A stretch of 64,000 bases of DNA, from the NCBI GenBank assembly GCA_002773855.1, contig PEZY01000012.1:367847-431846 (forward strand). Reading direction: 5' to 3'. The stretch's first letter is position 1, and each line of letters opens with the position of its first letter. The notes beneath the pieces are model-generated. The model was not told the DNA's origin. It did not search any database and saw only the letters and a list, made by a program, of their open reading frames with translations. The translations under genes were made by a program, and so were the position numbers. Shown piece by piece: positions 724 through 48,115 of this stretch. Source of the DNA: Candidatus Buchananbacteria bacterium CG10_big_fil_rev_8_21_14_0_10_33_19. Lineage in GTDB: Bacteria; Patescibacteriota; Patescibacteriia; 2-01-FULL-39-33.

Positions 724-2904
724 TTATAAAGTTAAAGGTTCTCCCCTACTATAATCATTTTCAAAACCATTTTGAATTTTAATAACCTCTGATTCCCAAT
801 TATTACCATACAATTCTAGTAATACATCACTGGTGGCATAATTAATAACTGCTCCATCAGACACAATATAAATTCTAGGACTGTTATAAAATCTAATTAA
901 TTTACTATCTGGCTTCACGGTTATATGCTCTCCTTCTTCTAAAGCATCAAAATCCTCTTGAGATATAGTTTCTAAATTTTGATCAGCCCAAGTACCTGTA
1001 TGCCAAGTCCAATAAGTTACACTATTAGGATATAAATGTCTTTTGCCATCATCGGTAATATGATAAACGGCATCACTATCAGCGGTTTTAATTACTCGAC
1101 CACTAGCATAGGAATAAATCTTTACACCTAAAACCTGTGGGGCTGGAGCGGATCCTCCACCACCACCTCCGCCACCAGCACTAGCAACAATAATATTCCA
1201 AGTAGCCGTAGTTGGATTGGTACCTATATCTTGCCAATTACCAGCTAAATCCTGACCAATAACTTCTAAGGTGTGTGAACTAATAGATAAAGTAGTTAAA
1301 GTTATTGGTGTCGCAATAGCCGTCGCTCCACTCACGGCTCCACCGTCTAAGCGATATTTATAATTAAGAACATCAGTGCCAGCTACTGTAATACTAAAAC
1401 TATTATCAGTGGTTTCGGCGGCTGGTGTATTGGATAAAGTAGATGTTGGAGCAACAGTATCAATTACTATGTAGCGACTACCAAAATAAACATCATCTGC
1501 GCTCAAAGTAGTTTGATGATTTCCAGCCTGATCATAAATATCGCCAGTGATACCCGATATATACAATCTGTCTGAATTATAACCATTAATAATAGAATAC
1601 TCGCAGCTAGCCGTGGTAGCTGGTGCTGAGGTAATAGCCAAATTACAAGAACCAATGTCAAAACTAATAGTTGAAGTGGCAACTAATGAAACAGCTTCAG
1701 AAAATGTTACCGTAAAAATTGCCGAACCCACCCCATAACTACTATCCGCTGCCGGATCAGTTAATCTTACTGTTGAAATTAGCGGCAGAACACCATCAAT
1801 AATAATATCAGAATTATCATCAATGTTTTCGTCTCTAATCTTGTAATTTAATAATATATTAGTTGAAGCCACACTATAAATACTACCAGTAATACTACTC
1901 ACACTTAAATCGGCTGTAGAATCATTTGCTCCCACTACATAATTACAAGAACCAGTGGTTAATGGTGATGAAGTAGCTATTTGAAAAGCACAACTACCCG
2001 TAGCACTAGCATTGAGATTAATAGTAATATCACTACTAGAATAAACTGACTCGGAAAATGTTAAATGAATAGGTACAATATCACCAATTTTATAGCGACC
2101 ATCACTAGCTGTACTAGTAGCCACAATAAGTCTGGGACTATCAGTATTAATGTGAATGCCATTGGCTAAATTACTATTAATATAACCAAAGGTGTTGCCA
2201 GCTAAATCATATATATTACCAGTAATACTACTGACACTTAAATTACTAGCATCATCGTTTGCCCCCACTATATAATTACAAGAACCAGTAGTTGATGGTG
2301 ATGATGTAGCTATCTGAAAAGCACAACTAGCTGTGGAACTAGCATTAAGATTAATAGTAATTTCACCGCCAGCATAGACTGATTCTGAAAATTTAACATT
2401 AATAGGAATAATATCACCAGCATCATAATAATCATTTATAACTGTGGTAGTTATAGTGGCATTAGGATTGCTAGTATCTACAATAATATTTTTTAACGAC
2501 GACATATAAACAGCCGGGACAAACGATGTCATAGCATTGCCAGTCTCATCATATATATCACCAGTAAGATAACGCAAATCCAAATCATTAGAACTATCAC
2601 CATTACTAACCGTATAAATACACGATGCGGTGGAACTAGCCGATGATTGATCAATGGAAAAATAACAACGAGTCAGCAAGCCTGATGTTAAAACTATAGT
2701 AGAAGTTCCTACCGTATAAACTGGCTCAGAAAAATTAACTCTAATTGTTATCTCATCTCCAGCTATGTAATAACCATCCGGACTATCACTAGTAATTTGA
2801 GTGATAGTGGGAGCTACTGTATCAACAGCTTCAACCGATTGACCTAGACCAAAAATTGCTAAAATAGCAACCACCATTATAAGTGGGTTTCTTACCGCTT
2901 TCAT
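724..2904 (-). CDS. Secreted surface protein with tandem ~100-aa Ig-like repeats, poly-Gly linker and a conserved C-terminal module
   Basis: Signal peptide (MKAVRNPLIMVVAILAIFGLGQSVEA); two near-identical internal repeats (…INLNAS.TASCAFQIATSSP.TTGSCNY.VGAND…); GGGGGGGGS linker; C-terminal ~130 aa homologous to the C-terminus of the 1352-aa protein at 9691-13749. Confidence 0.6.
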   Translation of the reverse strand: MKAVRNPLIMVVAILAIFGLGQSVEAVDTVAPTITQITSDSPDGYYIAGDEITIRVNFSEPVYTVGTSTIVLTSGLLTRCYFSIDQSSASSTASCIYTVSNGDSSNDLDLRYLTGDIYDETGNAMTSFVPAVYMSSLKNIIVDTSNPNATITTTVINDYYDAGDIIPINVKFSESVYAGGEITINLNASSTASCAFQIATSSPSTTGSCNYIVGANDDASNLSVSSITGNIYDLAGNTFGYINSNLANGIHINTDSPRLIVATSTASDGRYKIGDIVPIHLTFSESVYSSSDITINLNASATGSCAFQIATSSPLTTGSCNYVVGANDSTADLSVSSITGSIYSVASTNILLNYKIRDENIDDNSDIIIDGVLPLISTVRLTDPAADSSYGVGSAIFTVTFSEAVSLVATSTISFDIGSCNLAITSAPATTASCEYSIINGYNSDRLYISGITGDIYDQAGNHQTTLSADDVYFGSRYIVIDTVAPTSTLSNTPAAETTDNSFSITVAGTDVLNYKYRLDGGAVSGATAIATPITLTTLSISSHTLEVIGQDLAGNWQDIGTNPTTATWNIIVASAGGGGGGGGSAPAPQVLGVKIYSYASGRVIKTADSDAVYHITDDGKRHLYPNSVTYWTWHTGTWADQNLETISQEDFDALEEGEHITVKPDSKLIRFYNSPRIYIVSDGAVINYATSDVLLELYGNNWESEVIKIQNGFENDYSRGEPLTL

Positions 2905-24587: not shown

Positions 24588-25140
24588 TGTCTAGATAAAT
24601 CTATAAGCCGAATTCTGTTCCTGATGGGTCTGTCTCCAAATAGTCTTTTGTTTATAAGTTTTCACAATTTTGAAATAAATTTTTTAAACAATTTTTAAAG
24701 TTTAGTGGAGCTAAGCTGAAAAAATTTTTATAAAATTTAGACAAAATTTGGAAATTTTAACAAATATGCTATTTGGTGACAGACCCATACAAAGAGATGA
24801 CAATCTATCTGGATTAACTATTACTAGTTAATTCTAGCCCCCTACTATATTTGGGGTTGCACTAAGTAGAGTTTACCACGAACTGCCGGTCACCGACAGC
24901 TGAGTCACGTAGCTTTAGACTAAGGGGATATCCCGTTCTTATTCTAAAACATCATGACACTTTTCACCTTTCATTTGCCGAAGCAAACTAGTATTGTCTC
25001 TGTGGCACTGGTCCTAACTATACCTCGCGATATAGCTGGTGGGCGTTACCCACTACCATGACTTTAATCATAGTGATTAAAGAGTGTTCGGACTTTCCTC
25101 TCCGATTAAAACCGGAGTAGTCATCCAACTTATCTAGACA
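24588..25140 (-). ncRNA. rnpB: RNase P RNA (bacterial type A) with a long AT-rich insertion
   Basis: Ordered conserved elements on the minus strand: P1 (5' gucuagauaag / 3' cuuaucuagac), P3 hairpin, P4 5' strand GAGGAAAGUCCGAAC, GGUAACGCC, AGUGCCACAGAGA, GGUGAAA, GGUAAACUC, and P4 3' strand ACAGAAUUCGGCUUAU with compensatory GG/CC to AA/UU change versus E. coli. A consensus promoter puts the TSS at P1. Confidence 0.8.
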
Positions 25141-25145
25141 GTCAT

Positions 25146-25174
25146 ATTGTATCATAAATATAGTAAAATGTCAA
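25146..25174 (-). promoter_or_regulatory. Promoter of rnpB (TTGACA-17-TACAAT)
   Basis: -35 TTGACA (complement of 25169-25174), 17-nt spacer, -10 TACAAT (complement of 25146-25151); predicted TSS coincides with the 5' end of RNase P P1. Confidence 0.65.
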
Positions 25175-34504: not shown

Positions 34505-35287
34505 TTAATAATTGAAGCCGATGTTGACATTAACGATGCCACCAGAGTATGGGATTAGAACTAACCCCGCAATGGCGTCGAAGATATCGAAATTCAGATA
34601 GGTGGAATATGGAGTGCCGATCAAATCAACCAGTTGAATAGTGGCATGATGACCATCAAAGCCAATAGGCAACCAACCAGCAAAATGCAGGGCGGTACCA
34701 ACTTTGGTATAAGCCATGAAATACTGATCACCAGTGTCGGTGACAATAGTCGCGTCACCACTTGCACTCCAATCACCTGGCATGTTATCAATTTGGAATT
34801 CAAAGAAATAGGAATCCACCAATTCGAACATGATGTTCAAGTTAGTAGTACTGCCAGCTGTCACGACCACGATCACAGAATCAAAAAACAATCTTTTATC
34901 GTGAACGTCATAAGCTTCGATCCAAACACTATAATTTGCTGGTACAATGGACAATTCGCCAAAGTAATTACCAGCGGCATCGACATCGATGACAAACGGA
35001 TCAGCATAAGCATTTGTTTGTGCTGGTGGGACACTAGAGTCTTCACCAAACCAAATGCTAATATAATCGATATTGTCTCGAAACATGTCGCCAATCTGGG
35101 TTTGAGTGTGGCTGAGTTTGGCACTTTGGTAATCATAAATATTACCAGAAACTACAACCTTCCCGGTTGTCGACGGAATTGGTGGTTCGTCTGCCGACGG
35201 ACCACTATATTGATCCGTCGGAGGACAACCCATATTAATTGAAGCCATGATTATAGCCAAAATTAAATAGGATGTTCTCGGTTTCAT
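34505..35287 (-). CDS. Lipoprotein, GC-rich, paralog of 35490-36323
   Basis: Lipobox (INMGC); C-terminal ~130 aa aligns with the neighbouring paralog (DNMPGDW…FDG…FDIFD…VNV.F); local GC is well above genome background. Confidence 0.55.
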   Translation of the reverse strand: MKPRTSYLILAIIMASINMGCPPTDQYSGPSADEPPIPSTTGKVVVSGNIYDYQSAKLSHTQTQIGDMFRDNIDYISIWFGEDSSVPPAQTNAYADPFVIDVDAAGNYFGELSIVPANYSVWIEAYDVHDKRLFFDSVIVVVTAGSTTNLNIMFELVDSYFFEFQIDNMPGDWSASGDATIVTDTGDQYFMAYTKVGTALHFAGWLPIGFDGHHATIQLVDLIGTPYSTYLNFDIFDAIAGLVLIPYSGGIVNVNIGFNY

Positions 35288-35447
35288 GTTGTTTTCCTTC
35301 TTGGCCTGGCCCTAATTGGACTCAGGTGTTGGTGGTGGTGGGGAGAATTCCCCTTTTCCAATCTAACTGAAGTTGGTTGGAAGGTACAATGAACTGTTAA
35401 TATTAGCATAGAGAGTCATTATTGTCAATAGCTGACCAAAAATAAAA

Positions 35448-35473
35448 CCCGCGATCACATTGTGACCGCGGGG
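35448..35473 (-). terminator. Terminator after lipoprotein gene 35490-36323
   Basis: cccgcgatcaca-t-tgtgaccgcggg long hairpin, A-tract on plus / U-tract on minus. Confidence 0.6.
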
Positions 35474-35489
35474 TACTCTTAACAGTAGG

Positions 35490-36323
35490 CTAATACTCTT
35501 GGAAATAAACGTTGACGTCCAAGCGTCCCAGCCATTCGGGGAAGATGTACGGTACGTTCATAAACCAGTAATCATTCTCCCGCAGCACATCAATGTCGAA
35601 GATGTTGAACTGCAACTCGGTAGCATAGTCCTTGCCATCCAGATCAGTGACAATCAAAGCCGATTCATCGACTCGACCATCAAAATCAATCGGCAAACTG
35701 GCCCGAAAAAGAACCACATATTCATTACTGCCCGAGTAAGGATAAACGCGCGAATACTGGCAGTAGTAGCCTTCCCCATTGACCACGAGATTGGCATAGC
35801 CATACTCACTATAGTCACCGGGCAGATCATCGACCACAAACTGAAACAGATAATGCTCGGACAAACCCAGTAATACTCCAAGTCGTCCGGATCTACCAGC
35901 GACTACGACCAAACTGGTGTTATAGACAAAAGTCTCCATGCCTAATTCATCGTAGGCCGTCACATACAAATTGTATTCACCGGCCGGTACCAATATACTG
36001 CCACTGTACGACCCATTAATTACATCAATGGAGTGGTAGTAAGATCCAATTTCCATCCCACCACCGCCTTTACCAATACCGCTGTCGGCCGGGAAAAAAA
36101 CGAAGGCCAACTGCCGAATCCGCGGCTTATGAAACTCCACAATGTCGTTCCAGTCCATCAGGGCCTTGCTCTCGTTGAAGTCGCCTTCAATGATGACATT
36201 GCCCATGCCGGCGGGGATTAAGAGTTCTTCCTCTACCGGTTCGCTGATCGGTGTGGTCGCTGGACAACCAGTTAACCCCACTACCAACATCAAGGTGGCC
36301 AGGATCACAAGAATTTTCTGCAT
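35490..36323 (-). CDS. Lipoprotein, GC-rich, paralog of 34505-35287
   Basis: Probable start MQKILVILATLMLVVGLTGC (lipobox) with AAGGAAGAG RBS; the ORF-track start at 36398 is an upstream extension; consensus promoter TTGACA-17-TATAAT at 36442-36470. Confidence 0.55.
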   Translation of the reverse strand: MQKILVILATLMLVVGLTGCPATTPISEPVEEELLIPAGMGNVIIEGDFNESKALMDWNDIVEFHKPRIRQLAFVFFPADSGIGKGGGGMEIGSYYHSIDVINGSYSGSILVPAGEYNLYVTAYDELGMETFVYNTSLVVVAGRSGRLGVLLGLSEHYLFQFVVDDLPGDYSEYGYANLVVNGEGYYCQYSRVYPYSGSNEYVVLFRASLPIDFDGRVDESALIVTDLDGKDYATELQFNIFDIDVLRENDYWFMNVPYIFPEWLGRLDVNVYFQEY

Positions 36324-36441
36324 GTTCTCTTCCTTTCGAATTAAGGTTATTAGCACCATACTAACAACCGATTGATGGAAATAAACCCGACTAGACAAAT
36401 CGAATTTACCATTTAACTATGTCAATGTTCTAATGTTTTGT

Positions 36442-36470
36442 TATTATATCATATATATTACACTTTGTCA
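36442..36470 (-). promoter_or_regulatory. Consensus sigma70-like promoter (TTGACA-17-TATAAT) for lipoprotein gene
   Basis: Exact -35 and -10 hexamers with a 17-nt spacer, read on the minus strand. Confidence 0.6.
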
Positions 36471-36580
36471 ATCAAATCCATAAATAATCACTCTTAAACG
36501 GCTATATTAGGCTATTTTTACTCAAAAACCTAAAAACCCAGCAACCACTGGGTTTTTAAATAATCCAATTCTTTGTATCT

Positions 36581-42128: not shown

Positions 42129-42224
42129 AACTTTGACATTACTAATTTAATCAGATATAATATATTTCTGTCGCACATTTAAAGAACAATATCTAAAAAC
42201 AAAAACCAGAAGGATATTTACCAA

Positions 42225-42386
42225 TATGTTTTTAGTAGCCCAAGAAAAATGTGGCTGCCTCTGCCATACCCTGGCCGGAGGCATGACGCATAAAATTAAT
42301 TGTTGTAAAACCTGTCCCTATTGTCAGAAAAATATTAAACCAGAATTCTACAGAAAACATACCAAAAGATGTAAAAAAGAACACAC
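42225..42386 (+). CDS. Small Cys/His-rich zinc-finger protein, family member 1 (53 aa; below the ORF-track size cutoff)
   Basis: MFLVAQEKCGCLCHTLAGGMTHKINCCKTCPYCQKNIKPEFYRKHTKRCKKEHTNN; shares the C.C.CH…CC..CP.C…(I/F)…(K/E)H…C pattern with three downstream genes; own terminator at 42404-42436. Confidence 0.5.
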
Positions 42387-42403
42387 TAATAACTAGATTG
42401 TTA

Positions 42404-42436
42404 TTGCCCCTTAACTCACTAAGGGGCTTTTTTTAT
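42404..42436 (+). terminator. Terminator after zinc-finger gene 1
   Basis: gcccctt-aactcact-aaggggc + T7. Confidence 0.7.
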
Positions 42437-42542
42437 TTAAAAAAAATACACTTTTAATTATTGACTTTATACCTATAATATGGTAATTTTTAATTAGTGG
42501 TTTATATGATTTAATTAGCAATTCTCTTTGGAGGATCTCAAG

Positions 42543-42737
42543 ATGTTTAAGCCAAAGAATGTTTTTAGAATTGAAATTTGTCATTGTGATGACAGTGGTC
42601 AAGATAATAAAAACAAAGACACTAAAACACCTTGTCATGCCATCTGTCCATTTTGTAATGAGAAAATTAGAATCAATTTTTTAGTCAAACATCTAACTGT
42701 TTGTGAAAAAAGACGTCCAGCTAAACATAAACTTTAA
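42543..42737 (+). CDS. Small Cys/His-rich zinc-finger protein, family member 2 (64 aa)
   Basis: GGAGG RBS 8 nt before ATG (the ORF-track TTG start at 42528 is unlikely); ICHCDD…CHAICPFCNEKIRINFLVKHLTVCEKRR. Confidence 0.55.
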   Translation: MFKPKNVFRIEICHCDDSGQDNKNKDTKTPCHAICPFCNEKIRINFLVKHLTVCEKRRPAKHKL

Positions 42738-42785
42738 ATCAATAATAGCACATTATCACAACTCAAAACAAGAAAGGGTGGCATC

Positions 42786-43016
42786 ATGGACCACTTTGGT
42801 GAATGTGATTGTGATTGTCATAATCCAAACATTATAGGTCAAATTAATCATGTTGGGCCATGTTGTTATGAATGCCCATATTGTCAAATGCGAATCACTC
42901 CGGGGTTTATTGATTTTCATAAGGCGGAGTGTCAAAAGAAAATTGAAGAGTATCTTAAGACGCAAGACACTTTTAATCCTATTGACTCCAACAAAACAGA
43001 AAACAAGAAAGGGTAA
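42786..43016 (+). CDS. Small Cys/His-rich zinc-finger protein, family member 3 (76 aa)
   Basis: GECDCDCHNPN…CCYECPYCQMRITPGFIDFHKAECQKK; aaGGGTGG RBS. Confidence 0.55.
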   Translation: MDHFGECDCDCHNPNIIGQINHVGPCCYECPYCQMRITPGFIDFHKAECQKKIEEYLKTQDTFNPIDSNKTENKKG

Positions 43017-43020
43017 TACC

Positions 43021-43347
43021 ATGGTCGTGAATGATTTTGAAATTTGTCATTGTAGATGTCATAATAATCCAAACATAATGCACTGCATGCCTTGTTGTCT
43101 ACCTTGTCATTATTGTGGAGCTAATATTAAACATTTTTATTTTGAAAAACATGTAACTGATTGTCAAGCGGCCATCAAAAATCAATGTACTAGTGACAGC
43201 GAATTATGTGATTGCGCCTTTCATCAATTACCAAGCCGTTGTTCGCCAGCTTGCTGTAAAGAATGCCCTAAATGTAAGTTGCACATTAAAGAAAAATTCT
43301 TTGCTGAGCATCTAGAAAAATGCTCGGGTAAAAAACCCAAAAAATAA
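43021..43347 (+). CDS. Small Cys/His-rich zinc-finger protein, family member 4 (two tandem finger modules, 108 aa)
   Basis: The ATG at 43021 follows the same aacaagaaagggt RBS context as member 3; ICHCRCHNNPN…CCLPCHYCGANIKHFYFEKHVTDC plus a second CDCAFH…CCKECPKCKLHIKEKFFAEHLEKC module; the ORF-track frame 42850-43347 is an upstream extension overlapping gene 3. Confidence 0.5.
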   Translation: MVVNDFEICHCRCHNNPNIMHCMPCCLPCHYCGANIKHFYFEKHVTDCQAAIKNQCTSDSELCDCAFHQLPSRCSPACCKECPKCKLHIKEKFFAEHLEKCSGKKPKK

Positions 43348-43348
43348 A

Positions 43349-43376
43349 AGTCTCAGACAATGAGACTTTTTTTATT
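43349..43376 (+). terminator. Terminator after zinc-finger array
   Basis: agtctca-gacaa-tgagact + T7. Confidence 0.7.
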
Positions 43377-44547
43377 TACCAACACTATAAAATCTATTGC
43401 GTCTTTTGCGTCGCCCCGCCGAATTACCAAATCGATGAGCTTCATCTCTAGCTTTAGTAATTAATTCCCGTTGGGACTTAGCCAACTCTTTAACGGCCAT
43501 ACTAGTTTTAATTGGAAAAACCATTCTATCTCCGGCCAATTTAGACAAGCCAATAATTGGAATACTAATACCAATTCTTTTTAAAACTTGATTGACATAA
43601 TCAATCTGTGGCTTACCGCCATCAATTAAAATTAAATTAGGAAATGGCCACTCAATGTGTTTAAATCTTCTCGTCAACATTTCTTCTAGACTTCTCAAAT
43701 CATCACTAGCTGGCGCCGTTTTAATATTAAACAAGCGATACTGATCTTTAGCTAATTGACCATTAATAACCACTGACATCGCGCCAACCGTTTCTTGACC
43801 AGTAAAGTGTGAAATATCATAACCCTCTATTCGATTTTTACCATGATTATTACTAAGTTCATCTTTGGTAATTAGTGTCACATCTTGAATATTTTTTAAA
43901 GCCGATAACACTTCGGGATTTTCTTTTTTTAATTTTGCCAGCAACCTTTTCTTTTCACCTTTAAACAATAAAACAATATTTAAAATATTTTTCTTATAAT
44001 CTTTTTTATTAATTTCCCCAATACAAGTACCGGGACATAATCCCACTTGATAATCAAAACAGGGTTTACCAGAATTTGGCGTGCAAGTACTATAAGGGAA
44101 AATCCGTCTGATAATTCGTAAAGTATTTTTTAACAACGTGGCATTTTGATAAGGTCCAAAAATATAAGCATCGGTAGTTGGAAACTTATTTAATTCTCGT
44201 TCCCGAATAATAATGGGGTAAGCATAATCTTTTTTAGAAATTACAATAAAAATAAACGACCGATGATCCTTATCCTTCACATTATACTTAGGCCAATGTT
44301 TTTTAATCAAATTAGCTTCCAAAATAATCGCTTCTAACACTGTGTCGGTTTGCTGGTGTTTAATATTTTGCGCTAAAGACACCATTTCACTAATTCGCGA
44401 ATCAATATCGAGTCGAAAATATTGCAAAACTCGACGCCGCAGACTAGTGGCGCGACCAATATAAAGAATCTCGCCCTTTTGGCCGATGAACATATACACC
44501 CCCGGTGTTAATGGTAAATTTTTCGCTAAATCTTTAATGTTTTTCAT
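43372..44547 (-). CDS. uvrC: UvrC-like excinuclease, short form (GIY-YIG + RNase H-like endonuclease domain; no UVR or (HhH)2 domains)
   Basis: N-terminal GIY-YIG (GVYMFIGQKGEILYIGRATSLRRR), Cys-rich box CFDYQVGLCPGTC, C-terminal IEGYDISHF…LILIDGGKPQI endonuclease domain; only 391 aa. Confidence 0.65.
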   Translation of the reverse strand: MKNIKDLAKNLPLTPGVYMFIGQKGEILYIGRATSLRRRVLQYFRLDIDSRISEMVSLAQNIKHQQTDTVLEAIILEANLIKKHWPKYNVKDKDHRSFIFIVISKKDYAYPIIIRERELNKFPTTDAYIFGPYQNATLLKNTLRIIRRIFPYSTCTPNSGKPCFDYQVGLCPGTCIGEINKKDYKKNILNIVLLFKGEKKRLLAKLKKENPEVLSALKNIQDVTLITKDELSNNHGKNRIEGYDISHFTGQETVGAMSVVINGQLAKDQYRLFNIKTAPASDDLRSLEEMLTRRFKHIEWPFPNLILIDGGKPQIDYVNQVLKRIGISIPIIGLSKLAGDRMVFPIKTSMAVKELAKSQRELITKARDEAHRFGNSAGRRKRRNRFYSVGK

Positions 44548-44560
44548 AAATTAACTGCTA

Positions 44561-44589
44561 TTGACAAAATACCATAAATATGATATAAT
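44561..44589 (+). promoter_or_regulatory. Perfect consensus promoter TTGACA-17-TATAAT
   Basis: TTGACA at 44561-44566, 17-nt spacer, TATAAT at 44584-44589; drives small gene 44638-44832. Confidence 0.65.
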
Positions 44590-44637
44590 TACAACAGTGT
44601 TGTACATTACTTTTGGCAAAAATTGGAGGAACTTGTT

Positions 44638-44832
44638 ATGCTCTGGATTATCCTGCGTGATTTCCACGCATCACTTGCAGACATGAAGGCCGCTGTCGAA
44701 CTTTTCAAGGAAGTTCATAGCGCTGAATCTCGGGGCCTTGGTCCAGCGATGATTGGCGGTCTCGTTTTCGAGACCAAGGGTGATATTCCATCTGAAGACC
44801 AGCTGGTCTTGGGCATCATCCCCTTCAGCTAG
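44638..44832 (+). CDS. Small hypothetical protein (64 aa) with atypical GC-rich codon usage
   Basis: GGAGG 8 nt before ATG; strong hairpin terminator at 44858-44898; codons mostly G/C-ending (ctg cgt gat ttc cac gca…), unlike the surrounding genome. Confidence 0.5.
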   Translation: MLWIILRDFHASLADMKAAVELFKEVHSAESRGLGPAMIGGLVFETKGDIPSEDQLVLGIIPFS

Positions 44833-44857
44833 CCTTTGACTAGTGGACATCAATTTT

Positions 44858-44898
44858 GGACTCTTAACTGCTAATCACAGTTAACGAGTCCTTTTTTA
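44858..44898 (+). terminator. Terminator after small gene
   Basis: ggactcttaactg…cagttaacgagtcc long hairpin + T6. Confidence 0.7.
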
Positions 44899-44944
44899 TT
44901 TTACCATAAATTGTTATACTAGCCTTATCGTGGAGGAAAAAATC

Positions 44945-45223
44945 ATGTTCATTCACAAAGAAATATATAACAAAATTTTCCACCAACCATTATTTCAACT
45001 AGATTTAAGTGGCGGTAAAGGTATACTTCTGATTCACAATTTACTTTGGGTTGTCGGTTTTACTATGATTATTACCGCTGTCGGCTATGCCTTGGGTCTT
45101 TATGATGAAACTGAAAATAAAAAAGATTTCAAAATTCCCAAAGATGTTATTTATATTTTCTTTATCGGACTAGCAATATTTTTAGCTAGTTTTTATGTTC
45201 CTATCCCTATTGTGCGTCAATAG
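44945..45223 (+). CDS. Small membrane protein (2 TM), hypothetical
   Basis: GGAGG RBS before MFIHKEIY…; two hydrophobic helices; the ORF-track start at 44930 is less likely. Confidence 0.4.
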   Translation: MFIHKEIYNKIFHQPLFQLDLSGGKGILLIHNLLWVVGFTMIITAVGYALGLYDETENKKDFKIPKDVIYIFFIGLAIFLASFYVPIPIVRQ

Positions 45224-45520: not shown

Positions 45521-48115
45521 CTATTTCAAATACTCCTTAATATACTTGCCGGTCACACTCTTGGGGTCTTTCATCACCTGCTCTGGTGTCCCCTTAGCTA
45601 CAATATAGCCACCACGGTCGCCACCCTCGGGACCTAAATCAATTACATAATCAGCGGCATGAATAATATGTAAATTATGTTCAATGACGGCAATGCTATT
45701 TTGTCGATCGATTAATTTGTTTAATACTCCTAACAACAGTTCAATATCATGATAATGTAAACCAACAGTTGGCTCGTCCAGTAAATACAAAGTTTTTCGA
45801 CCCAAAGTATGCGTTAACTCTCTAGCCAATTTTATCCGCTGAGCTTCACCACCAGACAAAGTGGTCGCACTTTGACCTAATTGTAAATAACACAAGCCAA
45901 CTTCCTGTAAGACCTTTAATTTATCAGTGATCTGATAATGAGTATCAAAATAATCTATGGCCTCATCAATGGTTAAAGCTAGTACTTCGGAAATATTTTT
46001 ACCCTTATATTTCACCTGCAAAGTCTCCCGATTAAAACGCTTGCCATGACAGACTTCACACTCCACTGTTACCGCTGGCAAAAAATGCATTTCAATTAAA
46101 TTAACACCAGCCCCATCACAAGCTTCACACCGACCGCCCGGACGATTAAAAGAAAACCGCGACAAAGTATAACTTCGCTCTCGTGATTCTGGCAACATAG
46201 CAAAGAATTCTCTAATTGGTGTAAAAATACCGGTGTAAGTGGCTGGATTAGACCGAGGCGTTCGACCAATTGGCGATTGATCCACAATCACCACCCGATT
46301 AATATATTCAGTGCCAATAATTTTTGACACATCTTCTAAGTCCTCTTTTTTAACATTGGTCGCCAGTCGTGGATTGGCTTTTATTTTTTGAACATTTTTA
46401 TATAAGACATCATATAACAAAGATGATTTACCGCTACCAGACACCCCAGTAATACAGACCATTTTTCTAAGTGGAATATCCACTTGAACATTTTTTAAAT
46501 TATTAGCTCGCGCCCCAATAATTTTAATGGCTTCGCTAGTTGTCGTTCTTCTATTTGAGGCAGTTTCAATAAATCTCTCGCCTCGTAAATATTCTAAAGT
46601 CAAAGATTTTTGGGGATTAGTCTTTTTTAATAATTCTTTAGTCTCACCAATCGCTACTACTTCACCACCATGACGTCCAGCCAGTGGCCCTAAATCCACT
46701 AGATAATCCGAAGCCATAATTGTCCGCTCATCATGCTCGACAATAATCACGCTATTACCCTGATCTTTTAAAGCTTTTAGAGTTTTAATTAATCTTTCGG
46801 TATCTCTTTCGTGTAAGCCAATAGTTGGCTCGTCAAGTACATAAAGGGTTTTAGACAAATGCGAACCGATTTGTGAACCCAGTCTAATTCGTTGCGCCTC
46901 GCCACCAGATAATGTTTCCGCTTCGCGACTAAGCGACAAATAATTTAAACCTACCTGCAACAAGAAATCCAAACGATCACCAATCTCAATCACGACATTT
47001 TCGGCAATTTCTTTTTGACGGCTGGTCATTTTATTATGATAATCCACAAAAAAAGCATAAGCCTGTTCTATCGACAACGCACTGACTTCGGCTATATTTT
47101 TTTTATTAATTTTAACTGCCAATGGTTCGGCTCGCAATCTTTGGCCATGACACGACAAACAAGGTTCAATATTTTTCTCATATTTATTTTTATACTCACC
47201 TATTTCTTCGCCTTGATCATCAAATTTCTTTTTGGCTCCCCATTCTACTACTCGGCCTAAACCATTACACTTCTCACAAGCTCCGTGTGGACTATTAAAA
47301 GAAAATAATCTTGGCTCCACTTCAGGAAAGGCAAAGCCATCATTAGGGCAAGTCCAATTAGAGGACAACAAAAATTCTGGACTATCTTGTTTCTTTTCTC
47401 TAAACAAAGCAATAGCCAGTCCAGTGGCATAATTAATTGAATTTTCTACCGCTTCCGACAAACGACCTTCATCACTAATCATCACGCGATCAATCACAAT
47501 ATCAATACTGTGCTTGCTATGTCTAGCTAGTTTTACTTTTTCATGTAGCGAATAAAATTGACCATCAATTCTAGCTTCGGAAAAACCCAAAGCTAAATAA
47601 TCATAAAGCAACTGATAATATTCCCCTTTTCTATCGACGACAACAGGTGAAAGAATAGTAACATATTCTTCGTCCAACTCTTTGGCCCGGGATTTGATGA
47701 TATCAATCATCTCATCGAGTGCTAATTTATCAATTTTATGATTACATTTTGGACAATAAACTTCTCCTAACCGAGCATATAAAACGCGCAAATAATCATA
47801 AATTTCAGTCAGGGTGCCGACGGTAGACCGTGGATTATGCGACAAAGCCTTTTGGTCAATAGAAATAGATGGCGCTAGGCCAATGATTTCATCAACATCA
47901 GCCGGTTTCATTTGGCCCAAAAATTGCCGGGCATAAGGTGACAAAGATTCGATATAGCGTCGTTGGCCTTCAGCAAAAATGGTATCAAAAGCGAGTGATG
48001 ATTTACCACTGCCGGAGACACCAGTAAAAGCCACCAACTTGTTATGGGGTATTTCTAAACTAACATTTTTTAAATTGTGTACCCGCGCTCCACGGATGAT
48101 TATACTATCTTTCAT
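45521..48115 (-). CDS. uvrA: Excinuclease ABC subunit A
   Basis: Two ABC ATPase modules ([10 protein letters not shown] twice; LSGGEAQRI signature twice); zinc-finger Cys pairs. Confidence 0.9.

Follow-up and report, generated by a model that had tools for sequence, protein, structure and literature searches.

SgrS/SgrT, RNAIII/hld and SR1/SR1P are dual-function mRNAs, which encode small proteins. The locus described here resembles them in being a short, highly structured and independently transcribed RNA with a small ORF, but differs from them in that its 64-codon ORF fills nearly the whole transcript, no conserved non-coding RNA module was found and nothing indicated base-pairing targets. 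On the protein side, the closest described systems are small domains with a ferredoxin-like fold. The stand-alone ACT-like/ferredoxin-like mini-domains (aspartokinase 3mah, TyrR 2jhe, PGDH 1ygy, SerB 3p96, NIL 3ced) share 7–11% sequence identity with the protein encoded here; ACT domains bind their ligand at the β1-α1 loop. Subtilase propeptides and I9 inhibitors (PCSK9 prodomain, Tk-subtilisin propeptide, POIA1) are also ferredoxin-like and have 65–90 residues.

The gene is located next to uvrC in a 64,000-nucleotide stretch of a Candidatus Buchananbacteria contig, which we call the window (Table 1). A preliminary description of the window had claimed a 64-codon ORF behind a perfect TTGACA-17-TATAAT promoter and a GGAGG-8-ATG ribosome binding site, followed by a terminator with a 13-bp stem, and all of these elements are present, the promoter with an additional TG extension and the terminator stem with one bulged C. 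Positions 44561–44903 are most probably (we estimate about 85%) a monocistronic transcription unit, in which an extended −10 promoter, a strong Shine-Dalgarno sequence and a terminator frame one gene for a 64-residue protein. The protein, with the stretches AAVELFK, EVHSAESR and GLGPAMIGGLVFETK and the C-terminus PFS, is identical to the database entry GW933_02135 (NCN07470.1)/PIS06046.1/UniRef100_A0A2H0W3W5, a "hypothetical protein" from Candidatus Falkowbacteria/Buchananbacteria MAGs, and the identical sequence is present on 22 contigs. The entries NCN07470.1 and PIS06046.1 hold the same, already gene-called protein without a name, domain or family. The gene call as such is already public, and what we can add is limited to the family, the fold, the expression unit and the odd behaviour of the synonymous sites.

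Table 1. Features of the locus between uvrC and uvrA (positions in the window).
Feature	Position	Strand	Remarks
uvrC	43372-44547	minus	flanks the gene of the 64-residue protein
Sigma-70-type promoter	44561-44589	+	TTGACA (44561-44566), 17-nt spacer with TG extension at its 3´ end, TATAAT (44584-44589); 12/12 match
5´ UTR	44590-44637	+	short; putative transcription start near 44596; Shine-Dalgarno GGAGG at 44625-44629, then 8 nt, then ATG at 44638
CDS of the 64-residue protein	44638-44832	+	MLWIILRDFHASLADMKAAVELFKEVHSAESRGLGPAMIGGLVFETKGDIPSEDQLVLGIIPFS; ORF includes the TAG stop at 44830-44832
Intrinsic terminator	44858-44903	+	13-bp stem, one bulge, 7-nt loop CTAATCA, T-run; hairpin 44858-44891: GGACTCTTAACTG-CTAATCA-CAGTTAA(C)GAGTCC (13 pairs, one bulged C), then TTTTTTATTTT; expected transcript end near 44897
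Unit of the 2-TM neighbour	44912-45223	+	separate from the gene; own extended -10 (TGTTATACT, 44912-44920), RBS and terminator; CDS of a 92-residue membrane protein with two transmembrane segments 44945-45223
uvrA	45521-48115	minus	beyond the 2-TM gene

The expression signals had been counted among the strongest in the window. This holds for the promoter, which was the best-scoring site of the promoter scan, although it is one of three perfect 12/12 sites in the 64 kb (the other two at 36443–36471 on the minus strand and at 42133–42161). Sites with at most one mismatch were found six times in the 64 kb, compared to 1.2 expected. A one-mismatch site lies immediately 5´ of the RNase P RNA gene, and TTGACA/TATAAT is therefore the strong-promoter type of this organism. 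The terminator was overlooked by the automatic scan because of its bulged base. Its helix appears in the MFE fold of the transcript, and across six homologues 95.5% of the alignment cells were paired and 6 of 12 pairs were altered on both sides, which none of 500 shuffles equalled; it is the sole RNA element with clear covariation at the locus.

These signals are conserved in related loci (designated here by L numbers). The promoter sequence CTATTGACAAAA..TGATATAAT is kept in L001, L081, L083 and L084, and close variants are present in L092 and L038. Between the window and L081 the promoter is 97% identical and the 5´ UTR 92%, compared to about 55–64% at neutral sites. The distance between GGAGG/GGAGA and the ATG is equal in all homologues. 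Flanks were read for three distant members, L087, L089 and L092, and each of them shows a TTGACA-type promoter as well, followed in L087 and L092 by a hairpin plus T-run and in L089 by a hairpin only. At the sequence level, the hexamers, the 17-nt spacing, the hairpin with its U-run and the conservation are those of a sigma-70 promoter combined with an intrinsic terminator.

A word-indexed protein search returned five clusters, namely the window protein itself and P0002, P0003, P0005 and P0004 with 84, 78, 61 and 45% identity, respectively. The most divergent of these, P0004, is the ORF at the equivalent uvrC-adjacent position in L001 (UvrC 80% identical), with in-frame one-codon insertions and start and stop at equal places. 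An exhaustive HMMER search with a profile of the five sequences against 1.84 billion representatives (E≤1e-3) yielded 39 proteins, nearly all of them 53–93 residues long. A pattern scan based on a 12-sequence alignment found only two metagenome loci, one of them already known. The homology searches thus led to an undescribed family of 39 relatives and to no named match: Pfam, NCBIfam, PHROGs and PADLOC gave no family match for any of 38 members, and two profiles searched against the sequences of the PDB were equally without a match. Only two members carry an organism name, both from Patescibacteria/CPR, while the majority comes without taxon assignment; several further members are found in CPR-type synteny or in A+T-rich contexts. 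Judging from these searches, the family is rare and undescribed; its proteins have about 60 residues, and those members that are taxonomically placeable are all CPR.

The family motif reads M.LYLV..(loop)..L.DMKAAVELLKEvYgA..RGlaP..GLVYeT...IPeeD...LGivP[WF]x. Increasing the number of aligned sequences from 5 to 38 raised the pLDDT of the AlphaFold2 prediction from 74 to 94.9 (pTM 0.80). The model comprises β1 (residues 2–6), α1 (13–27), β2 (30–34), β3 (41–45), α2 (52–58) and β4 (60–62), so that the predicted fold is a minimal ferredoxin-like β-α-β-β-α-β sandwich. Foldseek found nothing significant (best E 0.38); the top matches were subtilase/PCSK prodomains and HMA domains, and the fold matches are generic. 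Conserved parts are helix 1, the RG.aP hairpin (β2-β3), the GLVY.T strand and the C-terminal LGi.P[WF], while the β1-α1 loop is the most variable part in both length and sequence. Most members are mildly acidic, with a median pI of 5.3 and, in the case of the window protein, a net charge of −4, and the family has no conserved cysteine, Cys motif, signal peptide, transmembrane segment or conserved catalytic-type residues.

The order uvrC, 64-residue protein gene, 2-TM gene and uvrA is shared by the window, L001/L083, L081 and L092/93; on the short contigs L082 and L084/85 the gene is again followed by the 2-TM gene, and L084/85 carry a second, divergent tandem paralogue (P0022). The nearest uvrC relatives belong to Buchananbacteria and other Patescibacteria. 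By this comparison, the gene is inherited at a fixed place across several Buchananbacteria/Falkowbacteria-like lineages. It is nevertheless patchy, since it was found in only one (L001) of 80 uvrC loci from Patescibacteria, each covering about 13 kb. L002 and L038, with UvrC proteins 76–81% identical and thus as close as L001, are without the gene, which therefore seems to be dispensable, but have kept the 2-TM gene, which was found at every syntenic locus.

Outside the uvrC/uvrA clade the members are located in different surroundings: between RNase Y and an AAA_33/zeta-like kinase (L087/88), next to UPF0102 (L089–91), 3´ of Ro60/TROVE and two small basic ORFs (L096), after a SET-domain gene (L099), and on a 136-kb contig with a GC content of 0.53 in an array of small same-strand ORFs of no assigned function near an SSB gene (L086). 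This last contig may be a mobile element; PHROG scans of its neighbouring ORFs matched only the SSB. In ten contexts examined, no neighbour or operon partner recurred outside the uvrC/uvrA clade, and most members with flanks read are monocistronic.

The region next to uvrC differs between relatives. L038 shares with the window the promoter (ACTATTGACAAAA...TGATATAAT), the terminator base with T-run and the TGCTATACT promoter of the downstream 2-TM gene, but between promoter and terminator it encodes a hydrophobic peptide of 51 residues, unrelated to the 64-residue protein. In L002, both the strong promoter and a cargo are missing. L007 has a consensus promoter that diverges from uvrC and precedes rpmA with its long leader, and in L006, L012 and L016 such a diverging promoter is followed by 300–600 nt of G+C-richer, ORF-poor sequence.

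It had been considered that the G+C-rich segment might be a structured ncRNA with an incidental ORF. Several features are consistent with that: compared with dinucleotide shuffles the transcript reaches z = −4.9, the 5´ and 3´ ends pair into a closed rod, the GC content of about 0.5 in a genome of 0.34 resembles that of RNase P RNA and tRNA, and a very strong promoter and terminator are located on either side. However, the reverse strand folds nearly as well (z = −4.2), and an Rfam cmscan of the whole window found only RNase P RNA and tRNA-Gln and nothing on the gene. A permissive scan of 44450–45000 at E≤10 gave short chance matches, the best with 21.8 bits against a gathering score of 82, so that no Rfam family covers the region at either threshold, and ARAGORN detected no tmRNA. 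The substitutions, moreover, follow the codons. A Nei-Gojobori analysis on five independent CDSs gave counts of 8/4/13, 11/3/19, 21/13/39 (window versus L084) and 28/16/46 for the three codon positions and a dN/dS of 0.19–0.28 in unsaturated pairs; in distant pairs pS reaches about 0.77 and the protein is still kept. In L001/L083, L081, L082, L084/85 and L092 the ORF is maintained with in-frame indels of one and two codons. A kept ORF, in-frame indels, an excess of third-position changes and a dN/dS below 1 are the marks of a coding gene. Conversely, a conserved RNA structure without codon conservation was not observed: RNAalifold on five transcripts gave a weak consensus of −23 kcal/mol, while the single sequence reached −104, and the covariation term was unfavourable (+3.08); third-position changes were equally frequent at paired and unpaired sites of the MFE structure (Fisher p=1.0), and pair-breaking changes were nearly as frequent as pair-keeping ones (11:7 and 14:11). 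No specific helix of the putative ncRNA is conserved, the codon pattern is purifying, and the protein family extends to members with about 30% identity and has a fold predicted with high confidence. We regard an ncRNA with an incidental ORF as extremely improbable; on the comparative evidence, the locus is a protein-coding gene under purifying selection.

A coding gene might in addition have a selected function at the RNA level, such as unusual stability of the mRNA, sequestration of its own Shine-Dalgarno sequence or a regulatory RNA activity, which would account for the GC3, the excess folding and the low synonymous divergence. Two observations indicate constraint at synonymous sites. The CDS of 8 out of 9 members folds more stably than permutations in which synonymous codons were exchanged while protein and codon set stayed unchanged (mean z −2.2, compared to −0.3 for 72 control segments of host genes; Mann-Whitney p=3e-4). 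Between the window and L081, pS is 0.27 in the gene, about half of that in the flanking genes (0.56 in uvrC and 0.65 in the 2-TM gene), and the 5´ UTR is conserved as described above. In addition, each of the five aligned homologues allows pairing of the Shine-Dalgarno GGAGG with CCCUUC of the conserved Pro-Phe codons at the CDS 3´ end; a double change occurs once, in L092. This pairing has only 5 bp and includes G-U pairs, and it may simply follow from the conservation of the amino acids. Within the CDS no particular helix is conserved, and synonymous identity decays to about 40% in distant pairs, where the pattern of low divergence fades as well. Codon selection in a gene with high expression can lower dS as well, and so can recombination; since the low synonymous divergence is patchy and fades with distance, it could be due to recombination among closely related lineages and not to selection. 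A recent exchange of the whole cassette is not supported as a simple model for the low dS, because third positions in codons 1–18 are only 50% identical to L081 (codons 19–64: 91%) and the spacer behind the stop codon only 58%, which is neutral divergence. Selection for a generic G+C-rich stable mRNA, selection on codon choice and recombination among close lineages are all candidate explanations. A dual function in which a real protein is combined with a selected RNA-level function seems unlikely to us.

The preliminary description was right in that the codons are G/C-rich compared to the A+T-rich host: the gene has a GC content of 0.52 and a GC3 of 0.56, while in-frame 64-codon windows of long host ORFs have a mean GC3 of 0.262 (sd 0.079) and only 0.6% of them reach 0.56. 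Locally, GC rises to 0.50–0.53 from about 0.30–0.35 in the flanks. The recent acquisition that it also proposed is not supported for this lineage. In such a reading, a foreign gene (a toxin, antitoxin, anti-defence gene or moron of a mobile element) would have brought G+C-rich codons from its donor, and the compositional outlier fits, as do the patchy occurrence at one of 80 related uvrC loci with absence from L002 and L038, the member beside the SSB gene on the contig of GC 0.53, the member adjoining the zeta-toxin/AAA_33-like kinase and the different ORF between the same promoter and terminator in L038. The gene is, however, syntenic in at least five lineages with saturated synonymous sites, so the acquisition would be old and amelioration should have erased the signature of a donor. 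Yet GC3 exceeds that of the host in all hosts examined but one: it is 0.51–0.65 in all syntenic copies (hosts 0.28–0.39) and 0.80 in L089 (host 0.57), and only in L086 is it about equal to the host. Saturated synonymous sites combined with a high GC3 in the syntenic copies show that the composition has been maintained and is not left over from an import. We infer that selection on synonymous positions, through codon choice and/or generic mRNA stability, has preserved the high G+C content of the third positions. High GC3 as a general mark of high expression was rejected, since in the window rpL21 has a GC3 of 0.21 and a small Cys-rich gene behind an equally perfect promoter 0.36; another gene with a perfect promoter (35490–36359) has 0.57.

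Neither do the searches point to a foreign effector. The preliminary description had suggested a small regulatory or toxin-like protein, but no toxin or antitoxin signature was found with PADLOC, PHROG or Pfam; for type II toxin-antitoxin systems the best hit was AbiEi with E=0.043 in one of 38 members. A tblastn search with two members found nothing in 50,697 phage records, nor did a scan of IMG/VR yield a homologue. Beside the zeta-like kinase, the small gene ends in a terminator of its own and the kinase has a separate promoter, and no gene recurs as a conserved partner. That the gene is a recent foreign acquisition is therefore quite improbable, while the patchy distribution and the member on a possibly mobile contig make an older horizontal movement plausible. 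The comparison of loci suggests that the uvrC-proximal locus is a place where small units with strong expression signals turn over. It might even be that a strong promoter and terminator form an "expression slot" beside uvrC with exchangeable cargo, which would be the 64-residue protein gene in the window, L001, L081 and L092, the tandem paralogues in L084 and the 51-residue peptide in L038. The 64-residue protein gene would then be mobile cargo, found also on a possibly phage-like contig, and its mRNA would be under selection, as GC3, excess folding and pairing of the Shine-Dalgarno sequence might indicate. We consider this unlikely, slightly more so than the dual function discussed above; if it were true, the unit could function both as RNA and as protein, or could be an effector with which an episymbiotic bacterium interacts with its host or counters defence.

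Our preferred reading remains that of a monocistronic unit for a small protein. Strong expression signals together with purifying selection imply that the product is probably abundant, and from the signals we infer that it could be very abundant. For its role, the ferredoxin/ACT-like mini-domains are the best guide, and since the family is without catalytic-type residues, Cys motif, signal peptide and transmembrane segment, a binding role is the most likely one. The protein may thus be cytoplasmic and bind a small ligand or a partner protein instead of acting as an enzyme, probably as a dimer formed through its sheet; as a specific mode of action this is tentative and not the likelier outcome. 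The neighbours differ between members, so the partner cannot be inferred from them. The analogy with ACT domains has its limits: in this family the loop that binds the ligand in ACT domains varies most, and unlike in the ACT ligand site the conserved positions are located in helix 1, the β2-β3 hairpin and the C-terminus. ACT Pfam models (ACT, ACT_4 etc.) were absent among the matches of any of the 38 members at E≤1.

Subtilase propeptides are the top, non-significant Foldseek matches, and the C-terminus of the family is hydrophobic/aromatic and conserved. The protein might be a stand-alone protease inhibitor or chaperone of the I9 type, whose C-terminal I-[IV]-P-[FW]-x docks in the active site of a protease like the classic AAPF substrate. 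However, all fold scores are non-significant (E≥0.38), none of the 38 members has an Inhibitor_I9 Pfam match at E≤1, and the family is without a signal peptide, although secretion is the rule for S8 proteases. Neither the neighbours of the members in the ten contexts nor the ten large window proteins scanned included a protease, and the last strand is trailed by only 1–2 residues, too short for a propeptide-type tail. We regard such an inhibitor as very improbable. HMA/copper-chaperone domains reach a Foldseek TM score of about 0.55 but differ in the metal-binding CxxC of their β1-α1 loop, which is absent here as the family has no conserved cysteine. For ferredoxin-fold nucleases of the Cas2/VapD type, neither a catalytic Asp at the end of β1 nor a CRISPR or toxin-antitoxin context was found. 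Our best guess, drawn from the structural analogies, is an abundant cytoplasmic binding or regulatory module.

The locus provides a useful calibration example. In an A+T-rich genome, an island of high G+C content and strong folding proved to be a protein gene instead of an ncRNA, and codon usage that looks foreign proved to be a long-maintained property and no evidence of recent transfer. In other respects this is an ordinary hypothetical small protein. CPR/Patescibacteria genomes are small and have a large share of genes without known function. The gene described here defines a compact family of about 60 residues that is described in no database and whose fold is confidently predicted; as the protein is small, soluble and easy to synthesise, it would be tractable for structural and interaction studies.

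A comparison of relatives suggests that the position adjoining uvrC is a slot with exchangeable content. The promoter and terminator pair around the 64-aa gene of the window recurs in the related locus L038, where it encloses an unrelated hydrophobic peptide of 51 aa; in L002 (5890-6000) the entire unit is absent. In the related loci L084 and L085, the first copy of the gene is directly followed at its 3' side by a divergent paralogue, P0022, which has an RBS of its own; a single promoter and a single terminator serve both genes.

The 64-aa gene (44638-44829) was compared with its homologue in L081 (1185-1376), and synonymous conservation was found to be a mosaic: identity at third positions was 50% in codons 1-18 and 91% in codons 19-64. 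For the flanking genes, third-position identity to L081 was 64% (uvrC) and 53% (the neighbouring gene for a protein with two transmembrane segments). This mosaic could reflect a constraint at the RNA level, codon selection or a recombination tract. The Shine-Dalgarno sequence GGAGG (44625-44629) could pair with CCCUUC (44821-44826) in the conserved Pro-Phe codons at the coding region's 3' end, and such a pairing would close the mRNA into a rod from end to end. All five aligned homologues keep the potential for this pairing, L092 showing one double change; it may be a coincidence arising from the conserved amino acids.

A near-consensus promoter (TTGACA-17-TACAAT, 25146-25174, minus strand) lies immediately upstream of the RNase P RNA, which confirms that in this genome promoters of this type mark highly expressed units. 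Further features and their locations are listed in the table.

Features in the window and in related loci (positions refer to the window unless a locus is named)
Feature	Position	Strand	Remarks
RNase P RNA, class A	24757-25174	-	126 bits; promoter included
Two neighbouring lipoprotein-like genes	34505-36471	-	compositional outliers
Perfect consensus promoter	36443-36471	-	precedes lipoprotein-like gene 35490-36359
Cluster of small paralogous Cys-rich ORFs	42133-43347	+	56, 64 and 76 aa
Perfect TTGACA-17-TATAAT	42133-42161	+	precedes first Cys-rich ORF
tRNA-Gln(CTG), terminator and G+C-rich segment	58935-59229	-	tRNA 59229->59158
Slot unit	L038 5640-5925	-	promoter and terminator match those around the 64-aa gene
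G+C-richer segment	L012 ~1600-2000	-	like segments upstream of uvrC in L006 and L016
P0022, divergent tandem paralogue	L084 317-502; L085 263-448		61 aa, MRYSVYRELHQSVEDMKAAVDLIKQVYDG...

The lipoprotein-like genes have a G+C content at third codon positions of 0.41 (34505-35287) and 0.57 (35490-36359), and neither has a Pfam match. Upstream of uvrC in L006, L012 and L016, a consensus promoter points away from uvrC and leads into a G+C-richer stretch of 300-600 nt, which in L012 ends in a GGACTCTGCA...TGCAGAGTC terminator. No credible ORF was found in these segments, and the sole Rfam match, in L012, was a weak one to tmRNA on the opposite strand. These promoter-led segments may be novel ncRNAs. 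The segment of about 170 nt (GC about 0.55) downstream of tRNA-Gln and its terminator starts with the tRNA 3' end in reverse complement, GGAGGGGGCAGGGATTCGAAC; at its other end, the tRNA 3' end and trailer recur as a 27-nt direct repeat, AATCCCTGCCCCCGAGCATAAAACAAA. Apart from the tRNA itself, no Rfam family matched this region. The segment resembles an att-type duplication or the remnant of an integration, or else a new small RNA.

The Cys-rich ORFs show a zinc-ribbon-like pattern, C.C..CC..CP.C...H...C, with two further repeats in a longer ORF; at least the first two seem to have separate promoters, and a terminator follows the first. Along with the 64-aa gene and its two-transmembrane neighbour, these ORFs make the surroundings of uvrC and uvrA an island of small genes, each apparently transcribed on its own.
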